A DNA stretch of 64,000 nucleotides, taken from the NCBI GenBank assembly GCA_023381615.1, contig JAMCQL010000013.1:3869-67868 (forward strand). The letters are read 5' to 3'. Position 1 is the first letter of the stretch. Each line of letters begins with the position of its first letter. A model generated the notes under the pieces. That model searched no databases, was not told the origin of the DNA, and saw only the letters and a program-made list of their open reading frames with translations. The position numbers and the translations under genes are program-made. Of this stretch, positions 5,548 to 20,438 are shown piece by piece. This DNA is from Bacteroidota bacterium (GTDB lineage Bacteria; Bacteroidota; Ignavibacteria; Kryptoniales; JAKASW01).

Positions 5548-6372
5548 CTATTCTTTCAAACTCCCGGCGACCAGTCCACTGACATAGCTCTTTTGCAAAG
5601 CGAGGAACAAGATCATGACTGGTAGTGTGGTTACAACCGATCCTGCCATCATGAGCTCGGTGTCAGGCGCGTGCTCACCCATCAGATTTGCCAGAGCCAC
5701 CGGAAGTGTGTACATGGAATCCTTGTTCATCACAATAAGTGGCCACATGAAATCGTTCCACGTACCAAGAAACGTAAAAAGTCCCAACGTGACAAGTGCC
5801 GGCCGTGCAAGGGGCAGCATGATCCGCCAATAGATTTTGAAATCGCCGCATCCATCTATCCTTGCAGAGTCAATAAGGTCGGTCGGAATGGTAGACATGT
5901 ACTGTCTGAAGAAAAAAATACTGAAAGCGCTGACGGTGCCGGGAAGAATGAGCCCCCAATAAGTATTCAGCATTCCCATCTGCCTCAAGATCAGGAAGAC
6001 CGGCAGCATTCCAACCTGTCCCGGAATTACCATCGTTACGAGAAAGGAAGTGAACATGAACCGCCGAGCTTTGAAATTGTATTTCGCGAACGCGAATCCG
6101 GCAAGCGAGTTTATGAACAAGCTTGATACCGTCATCAAACTTGCAACCGCAAAACTATTCAGAAAGTCTCTCAAGAAATGAAGGCGCTGAAAAAGAATTT
6201 GATATTGCTGTATTGTAAACGCTTTCGGCCAAAATCGCGGTGGATAAGAAAACGATTCTCCCGATTTCATAAATGAAGTCGTGATCATCCAGAAGAACGG
6301 GATCAAAACCAACATCACTGCCACAGCCACGACCGATGTGAGAGCCAGCGACTTCACACTTCTTTTCTTCAC
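5548..6372 (-). CDS. Carbohydrate ABC transporter permease (MalG-like)
   Basis: The 274-aa product is multi-TM and has the EAA-type loop IDSARIDGCGDFKIYWRIMLPLARPAL. It overlaps the upstream permease gene by 4 bp. Confidence 0.9.
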   Translation of the reverse strand: MKKRSVKSLALTSVVAVAVMLVLIPFFWMITTSFMKSGESFSYPPRFWPKAFTIQQYQILFQRLHFLRDFLNSFAVASLMTVSSLFINSLAGFAFAKYNFKARRFMFTSFLVTMVIPGQVGMLPVFLILRQMGMLNTYWGLILPGTVSAFSIFFFRQYMSTIPTDLIDSARIDGCGDFKIYWRIMLPLARPALVTLGLFTFLGTWNDFMWPLIVMNKDSMYTLPVALANLMGEHAPDTELMMAGSVVTTLPVMILFLALQKSYVSGLVAGSLKE

Positions 6373-7301
6373 ACTGCGCTCCCTTCCTTTTGAACTCGCA
6401 TTTCAATCATGGTCAGAATGAAAATGACAATCGCCAGAACGAATGCCAGTGAGGCAGCATATCCCATCTGCCAGTACCTAAATCCCTGCCGATACATCAA
6501 CAGAACTATTGACAGAGTCGAGTTCATAGGTCCACCCCCCGTCATTATGTACGGCTCCGCGAAGAGTTGGAGATATCCGATCAACGTCACGACAGTAACG
6601 AATAAAGTTGTGGGGGCGAGCATCGGAACTGTAATTCTCCAAAATCTCTGCCACGAACCGGCGCCGTCAATTCCGGCGGCATCATACAGGACTTCTGGTA
6701 TGGTTTGCAGCCCGGCAAGAAAAATCATCATCGTGTAACCGAAGTTCTTCCAGACAGCGAAGAGGATTATCGCAGGCATAGCCCACACCGGGTCGCTCAA
6801 CCAATCGCGCGGTGCCACCCCTAGGAAGCTGAGTGCGTAATTGAGAAGGCCAAACCTCGGATCGTAGATATACTTCCACACAACTGAAACCGCAACGAGG
6901 GTGGCAACCACGGGAGCGAAGAAGCCCAGCCTCAGAAGAGATCTGAACTTCACCAATTTAGAATTCAAAAGAACTGCCGCCAGGAGAGCCACAAAAATCG
7001 TGAGCGGTCCGCCCAAAATAAGAAAGTAAAAAGTGTTGAACATCGATTTCCAAAACAGCGGATCCGAGAAAAGATTCATGTAGTTCCCAAGGCCGACAAA
7101 ACGCGCAAAGCGGAAATGAGCGAGTGAGTAAATGTCGAAATCAGTAAAGCTCATAAGAAATGCCGCCACAACAGGTATAACAAAGAAGACCGCAAGCAGG
7201 ACGAAAGAAGGCGCAATAAAAAGATACGGAGCATTCACGGAAGACCACCTCGTGCCCGGATACCCGACTGCCTTTTTATCGCGATGACTAATCTTTAACA
7301 T
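6369..7301 (-). CDS. Carbohydrate ABC transporter permease (MalF-like)
   Basis: The 310-aa product is multi-TM and has the EAA loop YDAAGIDGAGSWQRFWRITVPMLAP. Confidence 0.9.
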   Translation of the reverse strand: MLKISHRDKKAVGYPGTRWSSVNAPYLFIAPSFVLLAVFFVIPVVAAFLMSFTDFDIYSLAHFRFARFVGLGNYMNLFSDPLFWKSMFNTFYFLILGGPLTIFVALLAAVLLNSKLVKFRSLLRLGFFAPVVATLVAVSVVWKYIYDPRFGLLNYALSFLGVAPRDWLSDPVWAMPAIILFAVWKNFGYTMMIFLAGLQTIPEVLYDAAGIDGAGSWQRFWRITVPMLAPTTLFVTVVTLIGYLQLFAEPYIMTGGGPMNSTLSIVLLMYRQGFRYWQMGYAASLAFVLAIVIFILTMIEMRVQKEGSAV

Positions 7302-7304
7302 TTT

Positions 7305-8639
7305 TCAGTCGGCCATCTTCCCCGTGCTTTTCAACCAACGCCGCTTTTCAAGCACGCGGTTTATATCTTTGTCCATACCGATAAGCGCCTGATCAAGCGT
7401 ATTCTTTCCCCAGACAACCGTCTCGATCCACTGCCCCATCTTATCTGTAACCTGTTCCCATTCAGGGATGCGCGGGAACGGACGCGAGGATTCAAGCTGG
7501 GTATAGAACGCCGAGATCAGCGGATTGCCGAGCAGCGTTGAATCCTGTCCCGACGAATGTCGGGATCCTTCGGACCAGGCGCTTTTCACAGCGGGGAGAT
7601 CGAAAGTCCCTCTGTAGAACTGCAGTTGGTTCTCGGGGAGCGAAAGAAATTCAATCAATTTCCAGTCTGCTTCTTTCTCCTTTGAACCGCGGAATATCAC
7701 AAAGCTGCTTCCACCCGCATTTGCGTCCCGGTTCTTGTTCACCGGAAGAGGAGCCACCGACCATTTGCCATTCAGATAACCGACGCGATTTCTCAACTCG
7801 TTTATATTCCACGGGCCGCTGATGAACATCCCGACATATCCAGACGCAAATGCCTGATACAAATTTGTCGTCGCGTTAGCTTCCATCGGAGAATAGCCGA
7901 GCTTAAAAAATTTCACGTAGTAATCGAACGCCTCACGATCATTCTGAGACAAAACATTGGAATAGCAGTCGTCATCTTTCAGTATATTTCCGTCATTTTG
8001 CCATGCAAAAAAGATCTCGTCCCATTCCAGGCCGGGGTTCACAGGCAGATAAATCCCGTAACAAGGACGACCGTTTAGTTTTGTCGAATAAGAAGTCAAA
8101 AGTTTCGCGGCTTTCAGAAGTTCATCCCAATTCTTCGGAGGTTGATGCATCCCTACCACACTCAACAGATCCTTCCTGTAGAAAAGCGCTCTCGTCTCAA
8201 CGTACCATGGAATTCCGTATACCTTTTTGCCCACAACATTCGTTTGCCAAATACCACTGAAATAGTTCGCTTCCTTCACAACATTTGATTTGGCGATAAA
8301 CGAATCGAGCGGCTCCAGCGCATCCATCGCATGAAGTTCCGATATCCACGTGTTGCCGAGCTGACACATATCAGGAGTTGCATTCCCCGCGAACGCCGTA
8401 AGCAATTTATCATGTGCTGAGCCCCATGGCACCACCTGAAGGTCAACGTAAATACCAGGATTCTCTCTCTCAAATTCTTTGATGAGCGAACCCAAATGCT
8501 CTCCCTCAGATCCCATTGCCCAGAAGGTGATCTTTGTAAGACCCTCGTTCCGTCTTGAACAGCCAAACACAACAAAGACTAACATCACCATCAATGACAT
8601 AACAATCGCTCTTTGAGAACGGGAATTATCTATTGTCAT
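7305..8639 (-). CDS. Extracellular solute-binding protein of a sugar ABC importer
   Basis: The 444-aa product has an N-terminal signal with a Cys (LVFVVFGCSRR). It looks like a family-1 sugar-binding protein (ITFWAMGSEGE..., GNTWISE, WYVETRALFYRKD) and sits 3 bp upstream of the permease genes. Confidence 0.85.
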   Translation of the reverse strand: MTIDNSRSQRAIVMSLMVMLVFVVFGCSRRNEGLTKITFWAMGSEGEHLGSLIKEFERENPGIYVDLQVVPWGSAHDKLLTAFAGNATPDMCQLGNTWISELHAMDALEPLDSFIAKSNVVKEANYFSGIWQTNVVGKKVYGIPWYVETRALFYRKDLLSVVGMHQPPKNWDELLKAAKLLTSYSTKLNGRPCYGIYLPVNPGLEWDEIFFAWQNDGNILKDDDCYSNVLSQNDREAFDYYVKFFKLGYSPMEANATTNLYQAFASGYVGMFISGPWNINELRNRVGYLNGKWSVAPLPVNKNRDANAGGSSFVIFRGSKEKEADWKLIEFLSLPENQLQFYRGTFDLPAVKSAWSEGSRHSSGQDSTLLGNPLISAFYTQLESSRPFPRIPEWEQVTDKMGQWIETVVWGKNTLDQALIGMDKDINRVLEKRRWLKSTGKMAD

Positions 8640-8800: not shown

Positions 8801-11329
8801 TTATTTTATCACGGCCATCTTTCTTACGCTAGTAAAATCTCCTGCAACAATCCGATAGAAGTACACTCCGTTTGGCAACCTGCTCGCGTCGAATTTCACC
8901 GTGTAGCTTCCCGGATTCTGACGTTCGTTAACCAACGTTGCCACCTCTCTGCCAAGCACATCGTAAACTTTCAATGTTACGATCCCGACAAAATCGGGAG
9001 AAAGCTGATAGCTGATGACTGTTGATGGGTTAAACGGATTGGGATAGTTCTGTTCCAAATCAAACTTAGTCGGGATTCCAGACTTGTTTTCCGAAATTCC
9101 GGTGACAGTAGTGAAGCCAGCTTTTGCTAGTCCATCCTGGATCACGGGATTCTTCATGAATGTATTCCAGACCCTCTGCGTCCTGTAGTTTTCAATCATT
9201 ATCATAATTGGTCCTTGGTCGATTCCAATGACATCAGGCCCCCACCAATTTGCCTTCAGATTGAACGCATCACGGAAGCCATAACCCATCCAGATATTAG
9301 CGCGATATGTATTGTACATGTATCGCAGCGTTGGAACGGAATACTCAGGAGTGAACGCTATGGAACCACCCGCCGCAGTCGGCGCTATTGTACCATCATC
9401 GTTCATTGCAGGCGGTGCTCCTCTGGCAATGTAGCCGTGATATCCTGTTGAACCAGGACCATCACACGCTGTCAGACCCCAGATGTTTGGTCCGTATCCC
9501 GTAAACCCTCCGGGATTTGCTATGCAATATTGTCTCTGTGCCAGAGTAGCAAGACGAGAATTTTGAAAATAAGTGATGTCCTTATTCTTCATGTAATTGT
9601 CAGCAATATTGCGATAGTCTATCCAGCATTGTGAATATTGGTGACCGAAAAGAGGCGGAAAATTTACGTAGGAATAACCGTAGTAAGTCTGCCAACTATA
9701 TCCGCTTGTCCAGGAATTCCAAACGCTTGCTGGAAGAGATGCACCAATACCCATGATGTTTAATATCATTCCTTCGTTATATCCGATCCAGCGTGCGCCT
9801 ATGAAACCGGATTCCGGCTGCCAACCCATAGTGAGAGAGCTATCGCCGTTTGTCATCCAGTTCCAGTCGGCACGATTGAAAATTGAATCGGCTAATGATC
9901 GGATTTGTGTCTCGGTCGTGTCCGTTCCAGTGAAGTACTGTTTGGAATACAATATTCCTGCAAGCAACAGACCGGTGTCAATTGAAGACAACTCGGATGA
10001 ACCGGCTCTTACCGCTGTATTCATACCAAGAAAATGATAGAACCATCCTTTGTATCCAATTGTGCCGGTGGAAGCCGTTCCCTCAGGTCCATTCCAAAAT
10101 GTCTTAAGAGTTGTGAGAGTCCTGTCTGCGCCCGCTTGCCGAGTTATCCAGCCGTGGTCAACTGCGATCCCTATTCCCGTCAAGCCGAAGCCAACTGCCG
10201 CAATGCTCGCTGCAGAAGTCTGTTCGCTTCTGTCTCTTACAAGTCCGTTAGACGGATTAGCCTCGTACCAGAAATAATTGAAAGCAGTATGCTGAACGAG
10301 ATCTAAGAAAGTACTGTCGCTTGCAAACGCCTGAGGGGTAACATTGACAGTGTCGGAACCGGGTCCTTCAACTTGATTAGTGTTTACACCGCGAACGAAA
10401 TAGTAATAGGTCGAGCTATTCGTGACCGAAACGTCGGCGTAGTCCTGCGTTTGAATTACTGCAGAGTTCAGTTTCGTGTACGACCCGCTCATGGAACTTG
10501 AGCGATAGACATTGTAACCTGCCAGATTGCTTTGCGAACTCCAGTCCCAATACAACATGGCGCTTTGGTCTCCTGATAACGACACAAGATTCTTCGGTGC
10601 AGCGGGCGTTGTGGTATCATTCTGCGACACCTTTGCAACGATTCTAATATTGTCAACCCACAAGGTGTGGAGCGAGTCATCCGCGGCGCCTTGATGAAAG
10701 TTCACATCCTTGAAGTTTGCCAGGGAAAAACCCGTAGGATATGGAGCAAATGCCGACAAAGGTATACTTACTCTTTGCCATGTCGTAGTGTCGGCATCGA
10801 TACCGCTTGGGAGATAGTCGCTTAGGTTTACAGTTGATGTTTTGGTGTTGGTTCCGTCCTCGAGGCCAATTTTCGGCAGGTCGACAGCAGGAACTGCATA
10901 GCGGCCGTTCATGTATATAACTACACTATCATAGCCGCTGACATCCTTTGATGCCCAACCCCAACTAGATATGAAAAGTCCCCAGTCGCCGCCGCTCACA
11001 CTCTTCCACTGCAAGAGTCCACTGTTATGGCCGGTGTAGTAATAAGTAGTGTCAATTATCAGCTTGTCCTTTGGAGAGTTTGGACCTCCCAAAGTAAGCA
11101 CACTTCCACCATTGGAGAATCCCCAAGATGCATCGTAATACCCGACACCAGTCGGGTCGTCCTCATCGAAGATTACAATATCCGGCTTTGCCTGCGCAAA
11201 AACGGAAATTGGCAATAGTACCAGCAGCAGAACCGCTGCTCTAAGGCAAATGAAGGAGCGAATGCTCATTGCTAGCCTCCTTTTTTGTTTTTCTGATTTT
11301 TCAAAAATCTTCGCAACATGTGAAGTCAC
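8801..11329 (-). CDS. GH144-like (glucoamylase-like, PF10091-type) glycanase with N-terminal CBM-like + Fn3 modules and a T9SS type-A C-terminal sorting domain
   Basis: The core reads LDLVQHTAFNYFWYEANPSNGLVRDR...AAVGFGLTGIGIAVDHGWITR, matching the glucoamylase-like family. An Fn3-like stretch (APKNLVSLSGDQSAMLYWDW...YNVYRS) precedes it. The C-terminus is FDLEQNYPNPFNPSTVISYQL...YFYRIVAGDFTSVRKMAVIK. The likely true start is ATG 11269, giving MSIRSFICLRAAVLLLVLLPISVFAQ, preceded by GGAGG. Confidence 0.75.
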   Translation of the reverse strand: MTSHVAKIFEKSEKQKRRLAMSIRSFICLRAAVLLLVLLPISVFAQAKPDIVIFDEDDPTGVGYYDASWGFSNGGSVLTLGGPNSPKDKLIIDTTYYYTGHNSGLLQWKSVSGGDWGLFISSWGWASKDVSGYDSVVIYMNGRYAVPAVDLPKIGLEDGTNTKTSTVNLSDYLPSGIDADTTTWQRVSIPLSAFAPYPTGFSLANFKDVNFHQGAADDSLHTLWVDNIRIVAKVSQNDTTTPAAPKNLVSLSGDQSAMLYWDWSSQSNLAGYNVYRSSSMSGSYTKLNSAVIQTQDYADVSVTNSSTYYYFVRGVNTNQVEGPGSDTVNVTPQAFASDSTFLDLVQHTAFNYFWYEANPSNGLVRDRSEQTSAASIAAVGFGLTGIGIAVDHGWITRQAGADRTLTTLKTFWNGPEGTASTGTIGYKGWFYHFLGMNTAVRAGSSELSSIDTGLLLAGILYSKQYFTGTDTTETQIRSLADSIFNRADWNWMTNGDSSLTMGWQPESGFIGARWIGYNEGMILNIMGIGASLPASVWNSWTSGYSWQTYYGYSYVNFPPLFGHQYSQCWIDYRNIADNYMKNKDITYFQNSRLATLAQRQYCIANPGGFTGYGPNIWGLTACDGPGSTGYHGYIARGAPPAMNDDGTIAPTAAGGSIAFTPEYSVPTLRYMYNTYRANIWMGYGFRDAFNLKANWWGPDVIGIDQGPIMIMIENYRTQRVWNTFMKNPVIQDGLAKAGFTTVTGISENKSGIPTKFDLEQNYPNPFNPSTVISYQLSPDFVGIVTLKVYDVLGREVATLVNERQNPGSYTVKFDASRLPNGVYFYRIVAGDFTSVRKMAVIK

Positions 11330-13509
11330 TTACTTCTTTTGTCTTCCACGAAACCAATCTTTTTCAGCGCTTCGCCTATTTCCGGATTTGACATGAACAA
11401 CTTCCAGAGCAATCCTGTCCTGTAATTTTCTATCATGACCACGATTGGACCTTCATCGAGTGCCATGTAAATGTCGGCATACCAATTCTGGGTCAAGTTG
11501 AAGGCATCTCTGAACCCATATACCCCCCACAACTTCCCTCCGAGTTCGTTGTAGAGATATTTGAGCGTCGCCATCGATTCCTTTGGCGTGTACGGCATTG
11601 ATGAGATTGCACCTGTAGGAGTGATTGTCCCGTTATCAGTGCGGAGATCGGGAGAATGGGCGAGGTATCCCCAAGGATCATCGCTCGCAGTAAGTCCCCA
11701 ACAATCTTCACTGTAGCCGACATAGTGGCCGGGATTGGCAATGCAATAGCTCCTATTGATAAGAGATTGGTTACGGTTGTTCTCAAAGTAATCGGTGAAC
11801 TTGTCTTTTATTCCTCGCGGATCGAAACCGAGAAACGAATAATGCGTGAAGAAGAGAGGTCCGCCCGGGCCGCATCCTACATCCAACTTGATTCCGTAAT
11901 ATTCATGGCCATTCGCGTAATGGTCTCCTTCTTCGGTTTGACTCCAATTCTTCCGATAGTCAACCGCTCGCTTTGACTGTCCTGCCCAACCTGTGTAGTA
12001 CATCGAGGCGGGAACAGGATGGGTTGGCGAAGCAATCGCAAGGAGATATACTATCATCGTCTCGTTCCAACCGACCAAAGGATGATTGATGTGCCATCCA
12101 AAATCCGGCGACCAGTGCCAGAACAAAAAGTCGCTCGTCGAATCCTGGCGGAACCAATCCCATTCAACTGACTGCCAAAGATCGGTTATCGTCGAACGAA
12201 TCTCTTCTTCTTTGGGATTTTGCTTATCGAAAAATGCCCGGGCGGCAAGAAGTCCTTGCATCATAAATGATGTCTCAACCAAATCAGCTCCATCATCGTA
12301 TTTACCAAAAAGAGGAATCACTTTTCCCGTTTGTCCATCTAAGAAATGAGGCCATGCGCCGTGAAATCTGTCTGCCTTCTTCAAAAAGTGCAGTATCTTG
12401 AGCATACGATCTGTTCCCTGGTCTCTTGTGACAAATCCTCTCTCGACTCCCACGAGAAGAGACATCACGCCAAAACCCGAAGCACCGATGGTAACAAGAT
12501 TATCATCACCTGGAGTGTTCTCCCTTGCGAGTCCAGAGACCGGATGCGCGTTGTCCCAGAAATACCTGAATGTCGCCCTTTGGACCATGTCGAGCAATTC
12601 GCCGTCGGTCATTTGATGTGTCGTGGCAGAAGCGATCCCGGAGAATTGGGATTCCACATAATCCTGGCTCATCGCACATACCTTGTAGAAGAAACTCTTT
12701 CCCGTTACACCGACATAATCTTCATAAATGTCCACACCCGCTCTTTGACTTCCGACCTGTTTGAAAGTCTTACCATCGTAGGATCGGTAAATCACATAAC
12801 GCTCAATACTTGTGTCTTTGCTCCCCTGCCACTTTAGTTCAACGTGTTTTTCGTAACCATCTGCCTTGAGGCCGACCGGTCTGCCGGAGGGAGCAGTCTG
12901 TTTGACATCCGGTGTGTATATTTTTATCTCGTCCAACAGCAGGGTGTGGTCTGCTCCATCATTATCACTCTGATGAAATGTGATCAATTTTATTTTGTGC
13001 AAGTTGAAGGCCTTGTTCGCTGGCTTGAAGGCCTCGAGCGGGATAATCACCTGCGTCCACTTTTTTGAAGGAACACTTTGGGAAAAATCACGGAGCTCAA
13101 TTCTGCCGGACCGATTCTTGTCCATATCTGTCATACTTACGGATGGAAGTTGAGAGCGGTTCAACTCCCCGTTAGAATACATCCAAAAGAAAAGCACCGT
13201 ACCGTCAAAATTAATGTCGCGATTTCTCCATTTGCTGACTTGTATTGAAAGCTTCCAATCACCGCCGGGCTGTGAGTTCCAATGCATTCTTAGGCTATTC
13301 GGTGCCAACTTATAGTTGTTCGCGTCAACAGGACATTTACCGTCTATAAGCTCCAGCTTGCTTGGAGCTGTTGTCGTACCTGAGCTGTAGTAGTAGAAAT
13401 TATCAGACAGGCTGTTATCGAAAATCACATGGGAATCATACTTCAACCATTGTGCGAAGACGCTACCACTCATTACGAAGAGCATTAATATCCCCCTGAT
13501 GAACATCAT
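11326..13509 (-). CDS. GH144-like (glucoamylase-like) glycanase, signal peptide, no T9SS domain (periplasmic paralog)
   Basis: The 727-aa product reads LLDMVQRATFRYFWDNAHPVSGLARE...GASGFGVMSLLVGVERGFVTRDQG...ADRFHGAWPHFLDGQTGKVIPLFGKYDDGADLVETSFMMQGLL, which I recognise as the glucoamylase-like/GH144 pattern. The N-terminus has a CBM-like module and an Fn3 module. Its start overlaps the GH94 stop by 4 bp. Confidence 0.8.
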   Translation of the reverse strand: MMFIRGILMLFVMSGSVFAQWLKYDSHVIFDNSLSDNFYYYSSGTTTAPSKLELIDGKCPVDANNYKLAPNSLRMHWNSQPGGDWKLSIQVSKWRNRDINFDGTVLFFWMYSNGELNRSQLPSVSMTDMDKNRSGRIELRDFSQSVPSKKWTQVIIPLEAFKPANKAFNLHKIKLITFHQSDNDGADHTLLLDEIKIYTPDVKQTAPSGRPVGLKADGYEKHVELKWQGSKDTSIERYVIYRSYDGKTFKQVGSQRAGVDIYEDYVGVTGKSFFYKVCAMSQDYVESQFSGIASATTHQMTDGELLDMVQRATFRYFWDNAHPVSGLARENTPGDDNLVTIGASGFGVMSLLVGVERGFVTRDQGTDRMLKILHFLKKADRFHGAWPHFLDGQTGKVIPLFGKYDDGADLVETSFMMQGLLAARAFFDKQNPKEEEIRSTITDLWQSVEWDWFRQDSTSDFLFWHWSPDFGWHINHPLVGWNETMIVYLLAIASPTHPVPASMYYTGWAGQSKRAVDYRKNWSQTEEGDHYANGHEYYGIKLDVGCGPGGPLFFTHYSFLGFDPRGIKDKFTDYFENNRNQSLINRSYCIANPGHYVGYSEDCWGLTASDDPWGYLAHSPDLRTDNGTITPTGAISSMPYTPKESMATLKYLYNELGGKLWGVYGFRDAFNLTQNWYADIYMALDEGPIVVMIENYRTGLLWKLFMSNPEIGEALKKIGFVEDKRSK

Positions 13510-15941
13510 TTTAACGATCTCTTTTTGCTTGATGACGATTTATCAAGTACGACATCTATTTTGTGCGGTTTTCCATCCGTAAATGGAGGAACAAGCACTC
13601 CTTCATTAACAACACGAACGCCTTTCGCTGGCTTGCCATCTATCTCAACTTCAAATACTCCGTGGCAAACACGACCAAGGTTTTTCACTTCGATATCCAG
13701 ATTAGATCCTCGAAATCTTCTTGAGACCTTGTATCCCTCCCACTCGGATGGAATGTGAGGGTCAATAACCAAACCATCAATGGTCGGACGGATTCCGAGT
13801 ATGTAGTCGAGTCCAGCTTTGAAAAGCCATGTCGCAGAACCGGAATACCAAGTCCAACCGCCGCGTCCATAAAAAGGTGATTCTGGACCATCAATGTTCC
13901 CGGCCGTTACGTAAGGTTCGGCGACATACTCGTCAGGATTCATTGCCCGATTGATTGGATTTATCTTAGAGAACATTCTATACGCTGCCTCACTGCGTCC
14001 GAGCATCGCTTCCGCGATCACAGCCCACGTTGCGGCGTGAGTGTAAACACCGCCATTTTCTCTCATCCCCGCGGAGTATCTCGTGAGATAACCGATCTTC
14101 TCGTCCGGGATTTTGTAAGCCGGGAAAAGGAGCAGCGGACCGGCTTTCTTCTCTAACTGCTTCTCGACGACATCCATCACTTGCTTGCTCCGCTTTTCAT
14201 CCGCGACGCCGGCAATGACCGACCATGTTTGGGCGTTGAGATGAATCTTTCCATCCTTGTTTGACCGCGAACCAATTTTTTCGCCGGAGTCCTTTGTGGC
14301 ACTCCAATACCATCCACCGTCCCAGGCGTGCTTATTCAAAGCTTGACGTAGCCCACGCGCACGTTTTAAATACAGCGACGCAAGCTTCTTATGGCCATCG
14401 GCTTGAAGAATCGCAGCGTGATCGTTGAGGATTTTGTAAAGAAAATGCCCGAGCCAGACAGACTCGCCTTTCCATTTCAAACCGACCGCACTCAGACCAT
14501 CGTTCCAATCTCCTGCGCCTATCAAAGGCAGTCCGTGTTTACTGAACCGACTCAGAACTCGATCAATAGCGCGGTTGCAATGTTCGAGAAGCGAAACTGG
14601 TTTGGAATCATCAAGAAACGGCTCTTTACATTTCAGAATGGACCGATCATTCGTCTCCTGAATATAACTGTTTACTAAATACGGGAGCCAGAGTAGGTCA
14701 TCCGACATATTTGTCGAAAGGCCAAGTTCGGTTATCGGATGCCACCAATGATAAACTGTACCATCTTTGTTTTGGTGTCGAGCATGAAGCAAGATCTGTT
14801 GTTTTGTCTGTTCAGAATCTATCGGCAAGAAAATCTGACTGTCCTGCAACTGGTCACGATATCCAAGCGCGCCGCCGGTTTGGTAATATGCGGTGCGTCC
14901 CCACAATCGCCCTGAGATCGCCTGATATTTCAGCCAGATATTCAGCATCGTGTTCATCGCTTCGTCAGGCGTCTTGACTTCAACAGTAGACAGAAGTCGT
15001 CTCCATCTTGCTTTGACTTCGTCAAGCGCGTTGTCAACATTCTCGGTGGATTGATACTTGGCGATCAATCGCATCGCCTCGCGCTGATTATCCGCAGCGC
15101 CGAGAGTAAAACAAATGGTCTTCTCTTCTCCGGGGTGCAGCTCGACATCAACTGCAAGTGAACCTATCGGATCGAGCGAGTTGCCGGTTCGCTTGCCGGA
15201 ATTCCCGGATTCGACTGCGAGAGGACGGCTGAGTTCACGGTACATCCCGAGGAAGGATTCCTTATCGCCATCATGGCCCGAAGGTCTGACATCGGACGAA
15301 TGAAAAGCGATGTAAGGCCAATCCATGTTCCAGTGGCCGTTTTCCGTTGGAACTTCCCACAACCGTTTCGCGGCAAACATTGCATTGTGGGATTCATCGT
15401 AACGGGTATTTATGAAACACTTATGAAACTCACGATGCCAATCAGGCGCAGCGCCGAGGCCCCATTCGAAATATGTGAATAACCGGAGCCGCCGCTCAGA
15501 AATGCCTTCATTTTTCAGAGTCAACTTCCATACTTCAAGCGGATCGTTGTTCGGAACAAATACGAGAAGTGAACTGCGGATACCTCTGTTTAATGATTCA
15601 ATTTGCGAGTAGCCGACGCCATGCCTGCAACGGTACTCTTCAGGTTCGGCACACACAGGTTTCCAACCGGCGGACCAGAATTTTCCGCTTTCTTCATCCC
15701 GGATATATATGTACTTTCCCCACTCATCTTTGATAAGGTCTTGTTCCCATCTGGTCAAGCGGTTCAGGCCTGCATGCGTCCGCCAACTGTAACCGCTTCC
15801 TGTCTGTGAAATGACAAGACCATAATCACCATTGCTAATCACGTTCACCCAAGGCCGAGGAGTATCAGGTCTGGTAATGACATATTCTTTGTCGTCGTCG
15901 GAGAAGTATCCGAACTTTGTTTTTAACTTCTTAGTATGCAT
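13506..15941 (-). CDS. GH94 family glycoside phosphorylase (cellobiose-phosphorylase-sized), cytoplasmic
   Basis: The 811-aa product starts KFGYFSDDDKEYVITRPDTPRPWVNVISNG, like cellobiose/chitobiose phosphorylases. The catalytic-region motif is LPLIGAGDWNDGLS. There is no signal peptide. Confidence 0.85.
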   Translation of the reverse strand: MHTKKLKTKFGYFSDDDKEYVITRPDTPRPWVNVISNGDYGLVISQTGSGYSWRTHAGLNRLTRWEQDLIKDEWGKYIYIRDEESGKFWSAGWKPVCAEPEEYRCRHGVGYSQIESLNRGIRSSLLVFVPNNDPLEVWKLTLKNEGISERRLRLFTYFEWGLGAAPDWHREFHKCFINTRYDESHNAMFAAKRLWEVPTENGHWNMDWPYIAFHSSDVRPSGHDGDKESFLGMYRELSRPLAVESGNSGKRTGNSLDPIGSLAVDVELHPGEEKTICFTLGAADNQREAMRLIAKYQSTENVDNALDEVKARWRRLLSTVEVKTPDEAMNTMLNIWLKYQAISGRLWGRTAYYQTGGALGYRDQLQDSQIFLPIDSEQTKQQILLHARHQNKDGTVYHWWHPITELGLSTNMSDDLLWLPYLVNSYIQETNDRSILKCKEPFLDDSKPVSLLEHCNRAIDRVLSRFSKHGLPLIGAGDWNDGLSAVGLKWKGESVWLGHFLYKILNDHAAILQADGHKKLASLYLKRARGLRQALNKHAWDGGWYWSATKDSGEKIGSRSNKDGKIHLNAQTWSVIAGVADEKRSKQVMDVVEKQLEKKAGPLLLFPAYKIPDEKIGYLTRYSAGMRENGGVYTHAATWAVIAEAMLGRSEAAYRMFSKINPINRAMNPDEYVAEPYVTAGNIDGPESPFYGRGGWTWYSGSATWLFKAGLDYILGIRPTIDGLVIDPHIPSEWEGYKVSRRFRGSNLDIEVKNLGRVCHGVFEVEIDGKPAKGVRVVNEGVLVPPFTDGKPHKIDVVLDKSSSSKKRSLK

Positions 15942-15951
15942 AAAATTAAAA

Positions 15952-17013
15952 TCAGAATTGAATGCCTAACGCAAACCTCGTGACGCTGAGGAGCCTTCCG
16001 TAGTTTGCCCAGCCGAAGTCTGCCTTCAGGCGAGTTTGCCCCAAATTATAAGCTACTCCAGCACCCAACGTCAAACCGCCTTCGCTATCCTTTTGAAAAA
16101 GCGACCTATAGCCGGCTCTCAAAGAAACAACGTCATAAAAGATGTATTCGCCCCCAAGATTCAGACTCTCTGTATTGTCGTTGGGGTGTAATGCGTCAAC
16201 GGATATAATCAGTCGATTCATGTCGGTGGCCAACGGTTGAAAGGAAACACCGAATCGAAACGTCAAAGGAAGATTCCACGAGTCTGTCCTCAAGTCCGCG
16301 ATAATATTTTGATTGCTCCCGTTATATCCCGGGTTAATGTTGTAGTAGACTATCGCATTGTCACCCGCGAATTTCATTGGAGTTCCAAAATTTGAGATGC
16401 TCATTCCTAACGCAAGACCATGGAAACCTGTTCGATAAAGCGTACCAATATCTAATGCAACTGCGCTCGCACTCATGTGCCAGATATATTCATTCACATA
16501 TTTGGCAGTAAAACCTATCGAAAACATATCGGTAAGGTTCCGCGCATAAGAAGCGGCGAAAGCGAGGTCGCCCGCTGAAAATTTCTCCCCTGTTCCTTCC
16601 GGGAAAGTGACAGTTCTTACTTCCATATCTCCCATAGATAGAGAAGTAATGCTCAGTCCAATTGTGCCGATGTCGCCAAGCACCAATGCGGCCGCGCCAT
16701 AATCGTAGCCTATGCCTGCAAACCAGTTTGTGTGCGAAAGTAGAACTTCGTTATTCTGCAATTGCGCGATTCCCGCAACATTCCAGTACAACGCCGAGAC
16801 ATCATTCGCGATCGATACAAACGCGCCTCCCATTGCCGCTCCTCTCGGACTTGGATCGATTTTCAAAAACTGAGCAGCCGTCGTCCCGACATTGGTGACC
16901 TGTCCCGTCACCTGTGAATAAGAAGGAGGCGCGAAGATTGCGACAAAAAATAGCACGCCGAGCAGTTTCATCGAAAATTTAGGAAAAACTGATTTGAGCC
17001 ATGTATTTTTCAT
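15952..17013 (-). CDS. Outer-membrane beta-barrel, PorV/PorQ-like (T9SS shuttle family) candidate
   Basis: The 353-aa product has a signal peptide (LLGVLFFVAIFAPPSYSQ). The segment GTTAAQFLKIDPSPRGAAMGGAFVSIANDVSALYWNVAGIA resembles the PorV/PorQ/UPF0164 N-terminal signature. The rest shows an alternating beta-strand pattern and ends in ...ALGIQF. Confidence 0.5.
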   Translation of the reverse strand: MKNTWLKSVFPKFSMKLLGVLFFVAIFAPPSYSQVTGQVTNVGTTAAQFLKIDPSPRGAAMGGAFVSIANDVSALYWNVAGIAQLQNNEVLLSHTNWFAGIGYDYGAAALVLGDIGTIGLSITSLSMGDMEVRTVTFPEGTGEKFSAGDLAFAASYARNLTDMFSIGFTAKYVNEYIWHMSASAVALDIGTLYRTGFHGLALGMSISNFGTPMKFAGDNAIVYYNINPGYNGSNQNIIADLRTDSWNLPLTFRFGVSFQPLATDMNRLIISVDALHPNDNTESLNLGGEYIFYDVVSLRAGYRSLFQKDSEGGLTLGAGVAYNLGQTRLKADFGWANYGRLLSVTRFALGIQF

Positions 17014-17027
17014 TGTACTTCCATCAC

Positions 17028-20000
17028 TTATTTGATAAGTGCTAACTTGCCAATTTTTGTACCGATGCCCGGTGCATCGACTTGATAGACATATATGCCA
17101 GGAGCGATGTCGAGATTATCCTTACTTCGCAAATTCCACGGTTCTGCACCATCAGACATAATGGAATCGTGGTTCAAAGTCACCACAAGGTCGCCGCTAA
17201 TTGTATATATCCTTATGGTGCAGTGCTGAGGGAGATGAATAAAATAAAGCAGTCTCTCGCCTCTGCCTGACTGGGTAAGCCTCTGTGGTTCCCAGCTTGC
17301 CGCAACGGTGTACGGATTGGGAACTACGGCGATGCGATCAAGCGCACCTTTGGCAGACGCAGTATCAACCTTGGCAGCAATAGTTGTGAACTCAAATACA
17401 TCATTCGAGCGGAACGGTGAATTGATCTTGACGTATGCAGTATCCCCATTTTGGGGATTAATGGTATTTCCTGCTACCGGGGCAATCAGATCTATTTCCC
17501 ACAAAGAAGCATAACGATTTGATCCTATCGGGAGCCAGATTACGATGTAGTCCCCCGCCTCAAACTTGTTATCTGTTTGGCTAACCGGTTCCCACAAATA
17601 ATACCGCACCTTGTGGTTCTCTGTTACGTCCCAAACCTGAAAATTAGTCACCGATAACGGCACGCGGCCATAGCTCCAGGAAGTGTCTGGCACCCCCACC
17701 AGAATCTCGTAACTATCAGGGTAACCTGGTACTTTTCCAGAGCTCAAAAACTTCTGCGCGGTAGTCGTATCTAACTTTGCAATAAGCAAGGTGTTTGAAT
17801 TTCCGCTGACCCATTTTGTGCCTGATGGATTCCATGCCGCAGAATCGTTTTTCACAAAAAGTCTAATCCCGTTAAAAATGGGATTGAAGTCTTCTCCGTT
17901 TACAAAACTAGATCCGGTGAAGATCGAATCTGCATGAAGTGAATCCCTCATGTCATAGAGAGAGTAAGTCAATGGATTGGTACTTGACGTGTCATCAAAA
18001 ACAAGTTTGTAGGTCTCTCCGTCACGGACCTGGAGCGGATCTACAATATCCAGCCATACTGCTCCACTTCCTGTTCCACTAAGATGTTGAATGGAACCGC
18101 CTTTTAACATTGGACTCTTATACCCGGCAGCGGCGGCGTTCGGAGTAGCCATACCAGTATTGATATCAAAGTGAAGTGTACCAAACTGATCACGAGATAT
18201 TACCTTGGTACATTCCGATGGGAAAATTCCGTTTATGGCGTCCCCTTTACTATATGAAACCACAGCATAGTAGTACGTCTGACCATTCACGACACTTGTA
18301 TCAACCCACGAATGCTGCAACCCCTTATCGTCACCGAGATAAAACTGAATGCCGTGGTCCGCAATCGGGAAGAAACCTGATATTCCATCCCTCAAATCAA
18401 ATTGAGCAACAGGCTGAAACATCGTCTTGTCCCCAAACCCGTTTGTTATTGTAAATGCATCGTTAAAGCCCGGGTCGGTGCTTTTGTAAATCTTATAACC
18501 TTCGAAATTATTTGGCGGATGAGAAAATGGGTCGTAAGAGCTTTCAGCGGCTTCATCCCAATATAACGTTACCTCCTTGTCGCCTGCCACGATGTTCACG
18601 TGAGGTTTGTTGGGGGGTCGGGCGAAGTTGTAGTTATTGTTATATATCTGCTCCACCGTGATTTTGTGCCGAATCAAATCTGCGAGGTCTTGACCGTAGA
18701 CAAGGGCAAGAGAGAAAAACTCGTCAGTCCCAGGAGGAAGCGGGAAAGGACCAGAGCCGTATAGAAATGCGATGTTACCGTTTTGAAGAGTCGTTTGAAA
18801 GTGACTATTTGCAATCCTTTGCCAAATACCTTCATCATCATAAAATGCAACACCGGTTCCGATGTAAAACACATCAAAGGCCGTTAGTCCAATTTGGTCT
18901 GATTCGTCCTTATCGGTTTTATCAAAATGTGGTTCACCTTCCGTCGGTATGCCATCCCCTTCCCCCGTGTCTCCCGTTCCCGGTATGCCATCCGCACCGA
19001 CATCGTCGGTTTGAGGATTCCAATTACCATTCTCGTCTCCTGACCAATGCTTTTTATAAACTCCTTGATACTTACCTTTCAAGTCAGGACCTGCCGCGTA
19101 GTTCGGCACCCATCCATACTCTAATTGACCGGGTCCGCTATCTCGCCGCTCGTCAATCATACGGTCCTGCATTCCAGCGCCGGTCACATAATTTTTGTAG
19201 GCAAACCCCATATCAATCGTTGGACTCTCATCGATCAATCCATTAAGATTGTCATCAAGATTATTTCCCGGGATTTCCTGCAAGACAATTCCCGGATACA
19301 AGTGATAAACATGTCCAAGCGAAACCACGGTAGTGTCGTGATTTGGCATTGTTACTACCGTACGCTCATACGTATGAGCTTCGAATGGACGCTGATACGT
19401 ATGCTCTTTGATTACGACAAATTTATCGCCAGCATTGATGGAGCGCGGAAGAAAGTCGGCATCCTGCAAGTGCGGGCTGTTAGGATCGACACTATCGTCA
19501 TCGTTATCAATTCCGTCGTAAGGATTTCCGGGACTTTCCAAGAAAGCGTATCCAACAAAACCAGTCGGGCCCCAACCACCATCTCCTAATCCCGTTGTGT
19601 TCCATGAATATGTCAAATTAAGTGATTTGTCGAAAGAAGCATTGTTCACGTTTGAAGAATACTGCCCGCCAACTCCTGTGTCGCAATACATGCCGAAAAC
19701 CACCTTAGTGTAATCTTGCGTCCCTTCATTTGTAACATCATAATGCCAAAAAATATTGTCTTGCGCCAATACGTTTGCCCATTGGAGACCTCTAACCTGA
19801 ACGCTTGTTCCTAACCCGCGTCTGGTGTGATCAGTCGAATCCGGGTAGTAGGGGTTTCCATATATATCAGATCCATCGTCTGAATTGTCGTCCATAACGA
19901 AATAACTTTCTTGGTCGGCATTTGTCCTTTGCCCGAAATAGCCATTCCACTTCCCGTTCCAAGACGGCGGCTCGTTAGCCCACGAGGGTGGCCATGTGAT

Positions 20001-20435
20001 TGGCTGATCACTCATTGCAATATTATCCTGATTAGGATTGAAATAACCTGGTCGGGGCTGCCATCCTCTTTCCACACCCGTAGGCGATATGTCCATTAAT
20101 TCCCTGTAGCCAGCTTCGATCACGTGAGCAGTGTCCCCCGCTGCATCAACAATCTCCGCGGCAACTATCGGCGTCAAGCCGTCAATATACGAGTGCCCGC
20201 TTCCCTTTGGCCAAACGCCGCTCGGCTGTTTTCCCCACCAGCCAACTTCCCCAAAGTTCCAAAACAATGTCTCGACCAAATTGCCATTCATCAGGCCGAC
20301 TTTTCTATACTTCCGATCACCTCGCATATCTGGCGGAATGTGAATTTGAGCCGACAAGGGAGTTATCTCTACCATTAGCGAGAGTGAAAAACAAATCAGA
20401 AAAAGTCTGTGTAATTTCATATAATGGTTCTCCAA
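17028..20435 (-). CDS. Large secreted protein of unknown function with Asp/Gly-rich Ca-binding-like segment, Fn3-like module and T9SS-like C-terminal domain
   Basis: The 1135-aa product has a signal peptide (LFLICFSLSLMVEITPLSAQ) and probably starts at M6, position 20420. Its acidic repeat is DENGNWNPQTDDVGADGIPGTGDTGEGDGIPTEGEPHFDKTDKDESD. The Fn3-like module reads VAGDKEVTLYWDEAAE...YKIYKS. The C-terminus is VVPNPYTV...IRIYTISGDLVVTL...GIYVYQVDAPGIGTKIGKLALIK. Confidence 0.6.
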   Translation of the reverse strand: MENHYMKLHRLFLICFSLSLMVEITPLSAQIHIPPDMRGDRKYRKVGLMNGNLVETLFWNFGEVGWWGKQPSGVWPKGSGHSYIDGLTPIVAAEIVDAAGDTAHVIEAGYRELMDISPTGVERGWQPRPGYFNPNQDNIAMSDQPITWPPSWANEPPSWNGKWNGYFGQRTNADQESYFVMDDNSDDGSDIYGNPYYPDSTDHTRRGLGTSVQVRGLQWANVLAQDNIFWHYDVTNEGTQDYTKVVFGMYCDTGVGGQYSSNVNNASFDKSLNLTYSWNTTGLGDGGWGPTGFVGYAFLESPGNPYDGIDNDDDSVDPNSPHLQDADFLPRSINAGDKFVVIKEHTYQRPFEAHTYERTVVTMPNHDTTVVSLGHVYHLYPGIVLQEIPGNNLDDNLNGLIDESPTIDMGFAYKNYVTGAGMQDRMIDERRDSGPGQLEYGWVPNYAAGPDLKGKYQGVYKKHWSGDENGNWNPQTDDVGADGIPGTGDTGEGDGIPTEGEPHFDKTDKDESDQIGLTAFDVFYIGTGVAFYDDEGIWQRIANSHFQTTLQNGNIAFLYGSGPFPLPPGTDEFFSLALVYGQDLADLIRHKITVEQIYNNNYNFARPPNKPHVNIVAGDKEVTLYWDEAAESSYDPFSHPPNNFEGYKIYKSTDPGFNDAFTITNGFGDKTMFQPVAQFDLRDGISGFFPIADHGIQFYLGDDKGLQHSWVDTSVVNGQTYYYAVVSYSKGDAINGIFPSECTKVISRDQFGTLHFDINTGMATPNAAAAGYKSPMLKGGSIQHLSGTGSGAVWLDIVDPLQVRDGETYKLVFDDTSSTNPLTYSLYDMRDSLHADSIFTGSSFVNGEDFNPIFNGIRLFVKNDSAAWNPSGTKWVSGNSNTLLIAKLDTTTAQKFLSSGKVPGYPDSYEILVGVPDTSWSYGRVPLSVTNFQVWDVTENHKVRYYLWEPVSQTDNKFEAGDYIVIWLPIGSNRYASLWEIDLIAPVAGNTINPQNGDTAYVKINSPFRSNDVFEFTTIAAKVDTASAKGALDRIAVVPNPYTVAASWEPQRLTQSGRGERLLYFIHLPQHCTIRIYTISGDLVVTLNHDSIMSDGAEPWNLRSKDNLDIAPGIYVYQVDAPGIGTKIGKLALIK

Positions 20436-20438
20436 AGC

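Follow-up and report, generated by a model that had tools for sequence, protein, structure and literature searches.

What does an enzyme with the size and fold of a cellobiose phosphorylase (CBP) do among genes for the breakdown of beta-1,2-glucan? This question is raised by a glycoside hydrolase family 94 (GH94) gene found in a 64,000-nucleotide stretch of a Bacteroidota genome (Ignavibacteria, Kryptoniales; assembly GCA_023381615.1, contig JAMCQL010000013.1, positions 3,869 to 67,868), hereafter the window. Sequence comparison, active-site residues and gene neighbourhood together point to a beta-1,2 specificity of this protein, which we consider quite probable whatever the chain length. The more precise reading that we favour, and take to be about an even call, is that of a cytoplasmic phosphorylase of beta-1,2-glucooligosaccharides (Sopn, sophorose being Sop2), acting on substrates with a degree of polymerisation (DP) of at least 3 as a CBP-like dimer and belonging to a stand-alone subfamily. 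On sequence grounds, this subfamily is classified as one of CBP-sized, putative beta-1,2-glucan phosphorylases devoid of the extra N-terminal domain Ndom1, a general prediction which is already in print for Ignavibacterium album (see below).

An earlier note on this DNA had described an open reading frame (ORF) of 811 aa at 13506-15941, opening like cellobiose and chitobiose phosphorylases and keeping the GDWND catalytic motif, and the ORF and its translation bear this out. The gene lies on the minus strand, the note having named none; the protein starts MHTKKLKTKFGYFSDDDKEYVITRPDTPRPW, in line with the N-terminal opening motif of CBP, and GDWND occupies residues 477-481 inside IGAGDWNDGLS, with Asp481 as the catalytic residue. 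Membership of GH94 is clear both from the Pfam matches to the supersandwich domain (PF06165, E 1.5e-84) and the catalytic domain (PF17167, E 7.5e-119) and from the fold, made of a supersandwich, an (alpha/alpha)6 catalytic and a C-terminal beta domain; no NCBIfam model matched this protein or the GH144 domains of its neighbours. A signal peptide is absent from the N-terminus, which indicates a cytoplasmic location. As the earlier note had stated, characterised 1,2-beta-oligoglucan phosphorylases (SOGPs) exceed 1000 aa through an extra N-terminal domain (PMC5309861; the 5H3Z chain has 1122 aa). There is no space for such an Ndom1 here: just 8 codons are open in frame upstream of the start codon, and the alignment to CBP begins at residue 9, versus residue 2 of CBP. 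The AlphaFold (AF2) model displays a four-domain fold (pTM 0.82), which Foldseek matched over the full length to CBP and chitobiose phosphorylase (ChBP) with TM 0.77-0.79 and to the cyclic glucan synthase Cgs with TM 0.75, LpSOGP being found at 16% identity. This model was used for the fold only, pLDDT being below 50 in all active-site and partner loops. The identical protein is present on three metagenome contigs, with the gene order preserved.

In HMMER searches against PDB sequences, the GH94 protein scored 494 bits with CtCBP (3QDE), 487 bits over residues 9-754 with the GP2-3 region of Cgs, 440 with ChBP, 390 with CgCBP (2CQS), 263 with cellobionic acid phosphorylase (CBAP), about 85 with cellodextrin phosphorylase (CDP), 73 with laminaribiose phosphorylase (LBP) and 42 with LpSOGP (5H3Z). 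The nominal first rank of Cgs (559 bits in total) was rejected as proof of clade membership, 73 of these bits stemming from a second match to the duplicated GP1 domain. Because the single-domain Cgs score is so close to that of CtCBP, we relied instead on indels, signature residues and identity. As a comparison, CtCBP scored 1217 bits versus CgCBP and only 314 versus Cgs. Over 775 aligned columns, the window protein is 36.8% identical to CtCBP, 32.4% to CgCBP and, on average, 39.1% to 38 Cgs GH94 domains, whereas the two CBPs share 64.3% with each other and about 30% with Cgs. A genome scan retrieved stand-alone relatives of about 790-840 aa with 45-62% identity, and both full-length synthases of about 2900 aa and N-terminally extended relatives of about 1050-1350 aa with 36-40%.

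Relationships were further examined in a midpoint-rooted neighbour-joining tree, where CBPs were represented by CtCBP and CgCBP, rebuilt from printed alignments, and from which ChBP, CBAP, CDP, LBP and SOGP were absent. The stand-alone group of about 800 aa formed a clade (70/100 bootstrap) adjacent to a clade uniting Cgs and N-extended proteins (100/100), the CBPs standing on a long branch (100/100); the window protein is placed outside the Cgs clade and separately from the CBPs. Tight clustering with CBPs and conservation of their acceptor residues, which the earlier note had envisaged as speaking against an unassigned specificity, were thus not observed: identity to them is low, the clade is separate and the +1 ligands are lost, as described below. 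Database matches comprised at least 120 clusters, all of about 800 aa and 61-97% identical to the query, from metagenome-assembled genomes (MAGs) of Kryptoniota, KSB1, Bacteroidota and Acidobacteriota. They bear the names 'cellobiose phosphorylase', 'glycosyl transferase family 36' (GT36) or 'GH36-type glycosyl hydrolase domain-containing protein', and the cellobiose label on this subfamily is probably a systematic mis-annotation.

The active site was compared across 24 stand-alone sequences (the window protein counted), 12 N-extended sequences and 38 Cgs, the native numbering of CgCBP being verified at R351, R362, D490 and E649. Ligands of subsite -1 and of phosphate are kept, namely R349, R362-D363, W479, D481, E628, H635 and S700-G701 (R351, R367-D368, W488, D490, E659, H666 and T731-G732 in CgCBP), and eight of these ten positions are invariant in the stand-alone sequences, R349 being Lys in two of them and position 700 either Thr or Ser. 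Subsite +1 is clearly modified. In CgCBP, the +1 glucose is bound by Y653, E649, Q165 (from the partner subunit), E659 and K658 (Table S2 of PMC5309861); only Y653 and E659 are retained in the window protein, where E649 is changed to Y618, Q165 to H173 and K658 to R627, while CgCBP R166 is replaced by K174. One deletion removes three residues (CgCBP I360-G361-R362), including the R362 that occupies the space equal to subsite +2 in LpSOGP (PMC5309861). Another removes 15 residues of the catalytic-loop lid of CBP (CtCBP 487-501, including ESFQ 496-499; the CgCBP lid spans 495-513), a lid whose ESFQ segment enters the pocket and restricts chain length (PMC10572201). Both deletions, together with the changes E649 to Y, K658 to R, F664 to Y, N667/N668 to A/A and L730 to Y, are common to all stand-alone, N-extended and Cgs sequences, the corresponding window residues being Y618, R627, Y633, A636-A637 and Y699. 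R627 is moreover the counterpart of R916, a +1 ligand of LpSOGP, via the equivalence of K658-E659 and R916-E917.

The stand-alone subfamily differs from Cgs at Arg621, which is invariant in the former and Gly in the latter, and in the partner-subunit loop E171-F172-H173-K174, which is full length in the subfamily and 4-5 residues shorter in Cgs and in N-extended proteins. Within the subfamily, E171 is conserved in 23 of 23 sequences, F172 and K174 in 22 of 23 and H173 in 18 of 23. Since Ndom1 is lacking while a full-length CBP-type partner loop is kept, the protein is expected to form a CBP-like homodimer, in which the pocket would be closed by this loop from the neighbouring subunit and by the subfamily-specific Arg621.

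Gene context was indeed in line with a beta-1,2-glucan substrate. The GH94 gene belongs to a co-directional cluster of 13 genes headed by a LacI regulator (Table 1), and this one locus brings together the GH144 genes, the Sopn-type binding protein with its ATP-binding cassette (ABC) transporter and the beta-glucosidase by which a beta-1,2-glucan utilisation cluster is recognised; Pfam scans of the locus revealed no cellulase, cellodextrin or chitin genes. The first GH144 enzyme (paralog a), predicted to be periplasmic, matches BDI_3064 (5Z06) with 735 bits over residues 26-721, that is, over its full length, and BDI_3064 is a sophorose-releasing enzyme that yields disaccharide units from chains of Sop4 or longer (PMC11975218). 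The link to beta-1,2-glucan through a sophorose-releasing periplasmic paralog, put forward conditionally in the earlier note, is strengthened by this match and by the presence of a GH144-like gene at most 10 kb away, mostly directly downstream, in 11 of about 14 informative stand-alone loci searched with a hidden Markov model of the GH144 domains. Paralog b had as its best PDB match XcSGL XCC2207 (8XUL, 373 bits; CpSGL, 185 bits), a Xanthomonas GH144 beta-1,2-glucanase (PMC12102758), and is a candidate secreted or surface endo-beta-1,2-glucanase. The binding lipoprotein matched 3UOR best (338 bits) and, second, Lin1841 (5YSB, 219 bits), a protein which binds Sop3-5. The GH3 enzyme matched the periplasmic beta-glucosidase 5XXL (673 bits) and Lin1840 (564 bits), and the GH2-like protein gave weak GH2 domain matches within residues 1-416 only.

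Translational coupling of the GH94 gene to two GH144 genes had also been proposed. It holds for the first, by an ATGA stop/start overlap at 13506-13509, and does not extend to the second, where an overlap arises only with the ORF-maximal GTG at 11329. The ATG at 11269 gives a proper signal peptide, and gene callers start the second GH144 gene there on the identical contigs (822 aa), about 56 nt after the end of the first. As this ATG is the likely start, only the junction between GH94 and the first GH144 gene would be translationally coupled.

Homolog loci compared with the window are given L-numbers. The window's cassette is repeated in the long contigs L084, L086 and L087 (a Kryptoniota MAG, an Acidobacteriota MAG and a Joint Genome Institute (JGI) contig): receptor, protein of about 1100 aa, PorV-like protein, GH94, two PF10091 genes, binding protein with two permeases and GH2-like protein, with GH3 in L086. 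In L086, the stretch read showed no binding protein or permeases. The locus of a KSB1 homolog resembles this cassette more loosely. This type of locus is conserved across Kryptoniota, KSB1, Acidobacteriota and Ignavibacteria.

These elements can be arranged in a pathway, whose order we infer as follows. The GH144 endoglucanase secreted by the type IX secretion system (T9SS) would cut beta-1,2-glucan outside the cell, and the TonB-dependent receptor module would carry the fragments into the periplasm, where they would be trimmed by the BDI_3064-like GH144 sophorohydrolase and the GH3 beta-glucosidase. Short Sopn would then be imported via the Lin1841-like binding protein and the two permeases. 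In the cytoplasm, the GH94 enzyme would use phosphate to remove the non-reducing-end glucose by an inverting mechanism, with Asp481 as general acid, releasing alpha-glucose 1-phosphate with no ATP spent. The leftover sophorose would be passed to the conserved cytoplasmic GH2-like enzyme, possibly a so far undescribed hydrolase or transglycosylase acting on sophorose, by analogy with the role of the GH35 enzyme IaSGT in I. album. A preference for DP of 3 or more is suggested by the features of an open subsite +2, by the resemblance of the binding protein to Lin1841 and by the conservation of this GH2-like partner.

Several points weigh against such a phosphorylase of longer Sopn. A periplasmic BDI_3064-like enzyme should yield sophorose as its main small product, so that a cytoplasmic phosphorylase ought to accept sophorose, and the retained partner loop could, together with Arg621, close the pocket to a disaccharide. 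The HMMER scores for CtCBP and for Cgs GP2-3 are nearly equal, and LpSOGP, a characterised stand-alone SOGP, is so weakly similar that the beta-1,2 activity had to be deduced via the Cgs domain and the gene context. The sister relation of the stand-alone group to Cgs depends on the midpoint root of a tree without a ChBP or CBAP outgroup. The correspondence of A358 with LpSOGP A626 and of Y699 with Y1004, and likewise that of Y633 with Y922, is by motif spacing only, and the active-site loops are exactly where the AF2 model is unreliable. For every member of the subfamily, moreover, the activity is a predicted one.

Among the rival explanations, a true sophorose phosphorylase (Glc-beta-1,2-Glc + Pi <-> alpha-Glc1P + Glc), using Sop2 made in the periplasm and then imported, deserves the most attention, though we hold it to be rather unlikely. 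The periplasmic neighbour matches BDI_3064 from end to end, the strongly conserved, full-length partner loop and the invariant Arg621 could close the pocket round a single +1 glucose, and our literature search found no 'sophorose phosphorylase'. In structural terms, this would be a CBP-like dimer in which H173 and K174 of the partner loop, with Arg621, shut a Cgs-type beta-1,2 pocket, an arrangement that seems doubtful to us: two of the three elements which restrict CBP to disaccharides, R362 and the catalytic-loop lid, are deleted, and the rest of the +1/+2 signature is that of the chain-acting Cgs domain. Tyr699 lies, by motif spacing only, where LpSOGP Y1004 binds the +2 glucose, the binding protein resembles a Sop3-5 binder, and the GH2-like enzyme, or in I. 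album the GH35 IaSGT with Sop2 as donor, suggests that another protein handles sophorose. A sophorose-type disaccharide specificity, as the earlier note had suggested, is thus not favoured, the +2-blocking Arg and the lid being deleted as in Cgs and the GH2-like partner being conserved. If it were nonetheless true, it would constitute a new EC activity, a disaccharide specificity assigned to no enzyme so far, and would extend across the multi-phylum subfamily of at least 120 clusters.

The same note had left cellobiose and laminaribiose as equally possible substrates, which no longer seems tenable in view of the lost CBP +1 residues, of the loss of both pocket-closing elements and of the 73 bits with LBP. 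An ordinary cellobiose or chitobiose phosphorylase, next to GH144 genes by chance, would account for the size, the four-domain fold with its Foldseek scores, the 494 bits with CtCBP and the name 'cellobiose phosphorylase' given to JGI homologs. It is nevertheless very improbable, with an identity of 33-37% versus 64% between two true CBPs, E649 and Q165 changed to unlike residues, K658 to Arg and R166 to Lys, R362 and the lid loop deleted, a GH144 linkage kept across phyla and a locus without cellulase, cellodextrin or chitin genes. Another beta-glucoside could also be the substrate: laminaribiose or oligomers with beta-1,3 links, a sophoroside or some beta-1,2-glucosyl compound whose aglycone is not glucose, or a disaccharide that is acidic, like the substrate of CBAP. 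New GH94 acceptor specificities indeed keep appearing, including solabiose and glucosyl-glucuronide (PMC8741936 and a reference in PMC11975218), GH3 enzymes of the type found here also cleave beta-1,3 links (PMC12369401), and IaSGT of the I. album cluster transfers glucose to varied aglycones (PMC8861115). We judge this improbable, since LBP and CBAP show only remote similarity (73 and 263 bits), every locus hydrolase that can be matched to a characterised enzyme resembles beta-1,2-glucan enzymes, and the signature residues are those of the beta-1,2-specific Cgs domain.

The window protein can be set beside known systems, among them that of I. album, whose GH94 enzyme we take to be of the same kind. 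Kobayashi et al. (2022; PMC8861115) regarded I. album IALB_1177 as homologous to the SOGP domain at the C-terminus of cyclic glucan synthase and as 'expected to release Sop2 as a final product', a prediction for an uncharacterised protein. As in the window, the cluster around this stand-alone GH94 gene encodes a pair of GH144 proteins, a Lin1841-like binding protein and a TonB receptor; the I. album cluster has the GH35 transglucosylase IaSGT where the window locus has the GH2-like protein. The protein of an I. album MAG in our set (L007, not necessarily IALB_1177) is 50% identical to the window protein and belongs to the same clade. The idea raised in the earlier note is therefore less new than it appeared, an SOGP-type enzyme having been predicted in PMC8861115 for the I. 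album counterpart. In our literature search, IALB_1177 was not mentioned outside that paper, and the search, newer GH94 work included, found no characterised member of the CBP-size class with a beta-1,2 activity, which agrees with the earlier statement that this activity was unassigned there.

The GH94 domain of Cgs, whose chain gave the highest total PDB score, has an identical signature and the same two deletions; it phosphorolyses chains of beta-1,2-glucan, starting at their non-reducing end (PMC10901819, PMC11842490). As a whole, however, Cgs is a membrane protein of some 2800 aa that includes GT84, cyclase, GP1 and Rossmann-like domains, and its phosphorylase trims the growing chain during synthesis, whereas the window protein is soluble, predicted to be catabolic and without GP1, with a full-length partner loop and with Arg621 instead of Gly. 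The SOGPs of Listeria and Lachnoclostridium (EC 2.4.1.333) share with it the proposed reaction and a neighbourhood with a Sopn-binding protein and a Sop2-cleaving glucosidase. Probably common to both are also small residues in place of the +2-blocking Arg, an Arg ahead of the conserved Glu (R916/R627) and, by motif spacing, a phosphate-site Tyr (Y922/Y633). The SOGPs are monomers of more than 1000 aa in which the duplicated Ndom1 completes the pocket, SOGP and Cgs both using an extra N-terminal domain to this end (PMC5309861; PMC10901819); the window protein has no Ndom1. With CBP (CtCBP, CgCBP; EC 2.4.1.20) it shares length, four-domain fold, opening motif, partner-loop length and the -1 and phosphate sites, but its +1 ligands are changed, R362 and the 15-residue lid are deleted, and its context is one of beta-1,2-glucan, not cellulose.

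Beta-1,2-glucans are polymers of bacterial symbiosis, virulence and osmoprotection. To our knowledge, enzymes for their breakdown have been identified only since 2014, and we know of two phosphorylase architectures, each of which completes the pocket via an extra domain: Ndom1 in the monomeric SOGP, GP1 in the C-terminal region of Cgs. If our reading is true, the present subfamily would represent a third solution, on a plain CBP-sized and presumably dimeric scaffold. This subfamily is common in uncultured bacteria of the Fibrobacteres-Chlorobi-Bacteroidetes (FCB) group and in other phyla, under a 'cellobiose phosphorylase' annotation, which a characterised member would correct while completing the cytoplasmic end of the beta-1,2-glucan utilisation locus. 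If glucose were accepted as acceptor, the enzyme would further offer a one-enzyme route to sophorose, a synthesis which required three enzymes in 2025 (PMC11975218).

Table 1. Genes of the GH94 locus, with positions in the window.
Feature	Position	Strand	Characteristics
LacI-family regulator, 338 aa	25169..26185	minus	Locus head; LacI homologs upstream in L007, L010, L011, L027
T9SS-sorted surface protein, 593 aa	23248..25029	minus	Por_Secre_tail, FlgD_ig; signal peptide
TonB-dependent outer-membrane receptor, 904 aa	20439..23153	minus	CarboxypepD_reg, Plug and barrel
Secreted orphan-family protein, about 1130 aa	17028..20435	minus	Position kept in L084, L086, L087, L006, L010
PorV/PorQ-family outer-membrane protein, 353 aa	15952..17013	minus	NF033709, 231 bits; directly upstream of GH94 in L084, L086, L087
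GH94 phosphorylase, 811 aa	13506..15941	minus	ATG start; PF06165 and PF17167; predicted cytoplasmic
GH144 paralog a, 727 aa	11326..13509	minus	PF10091; Sec signal peptide MMFIRGILMLFVMSGSVFA/Q; without T9SS tail
GH144 paralog b, 842-aa ORF (likely 822 aa)	8801..11329 (ATG 11269)	minus	Signal peptide, CBM30-like, PF10091 GH144, T9SS sorting domain
ABC solute-binding lipoprotein, 444 aa, Lin1841-like	7305..8639	minus	SBP_bac_1; N-terminal lipobox
Two ABC permeases	6369..7301 and 5548..6372	minus	BPD_transp_1; kept in L006, L012, L084, L087
GH2-like protein, 903 aa	2796..5507	minus	Without signal peptide (cytoplasmic); kept in L084, L086, L087
GH3 BglX-type beta-glucosidase, 772 aa	460..2778	minus	Signal peptide (periplasmic); Pfam, NCBIfam

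The remaining genes of the cluster precede GH94. The 593-aa protein, first after the LacI gene, has no recognised catalytic or binding domain, and its counterpart in L084 gave a weak CBM9 match; it may be a surface glucan-binding protein. The secreted protein of about 1130 aa had no Pfam, NCBIfam or PDB sequence match. A triad made of a TonB receptor, a secreted protein of about 1070-1135 aa and a PorV/PorQ protein (15952-23153 in the window, 599-7670 in L084, 3009-9982 in L086 and 1-4835 in L087) precedes GH94 in all close homolog loci, and has the look of a module by which FCB-group bacteria other than Bacteroidota take up glycans across the outer membrane. Counts of promoter-like (33 versus 27.1 +/- 5.1) and terminator-like (27 versus 17.1 +/- 4.0) elements were near the chance expectation from shuffled sequence.

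Near the GH144 genes of L084 (15680-18853), L085 (18796-21966), L086 (15421-18675) and L087 (6747-9941) lies a further gene, whose product of about 1060 aa bears an F5/8-type-C (discoidin) domain. In L084 and L086 this gene follows the GH144 genes directly, and the window's locus does not have it. Long open frames in L009 and L010 had the appearance of a GH94-GH144 fusion, which was rejected, each consisting of two genes in the same frame with a stop between them. A second, putatively catabolic GH94 architecture, belonging to the Cgs clade, was observed in L020, L025, L051, L078 and L083 (GH94 match at about 10001-12400, and at 3141-5465 in L083), from Proteobacteria and Acidobacteriota. These stand-alone proteins of about 1150-1320 aa carry an N-terminal extension of 350-530 aa, presumably GP1/Ndom1-like, and their genes adjoin GH144 genes and, in L051, ABC transporter genes too.

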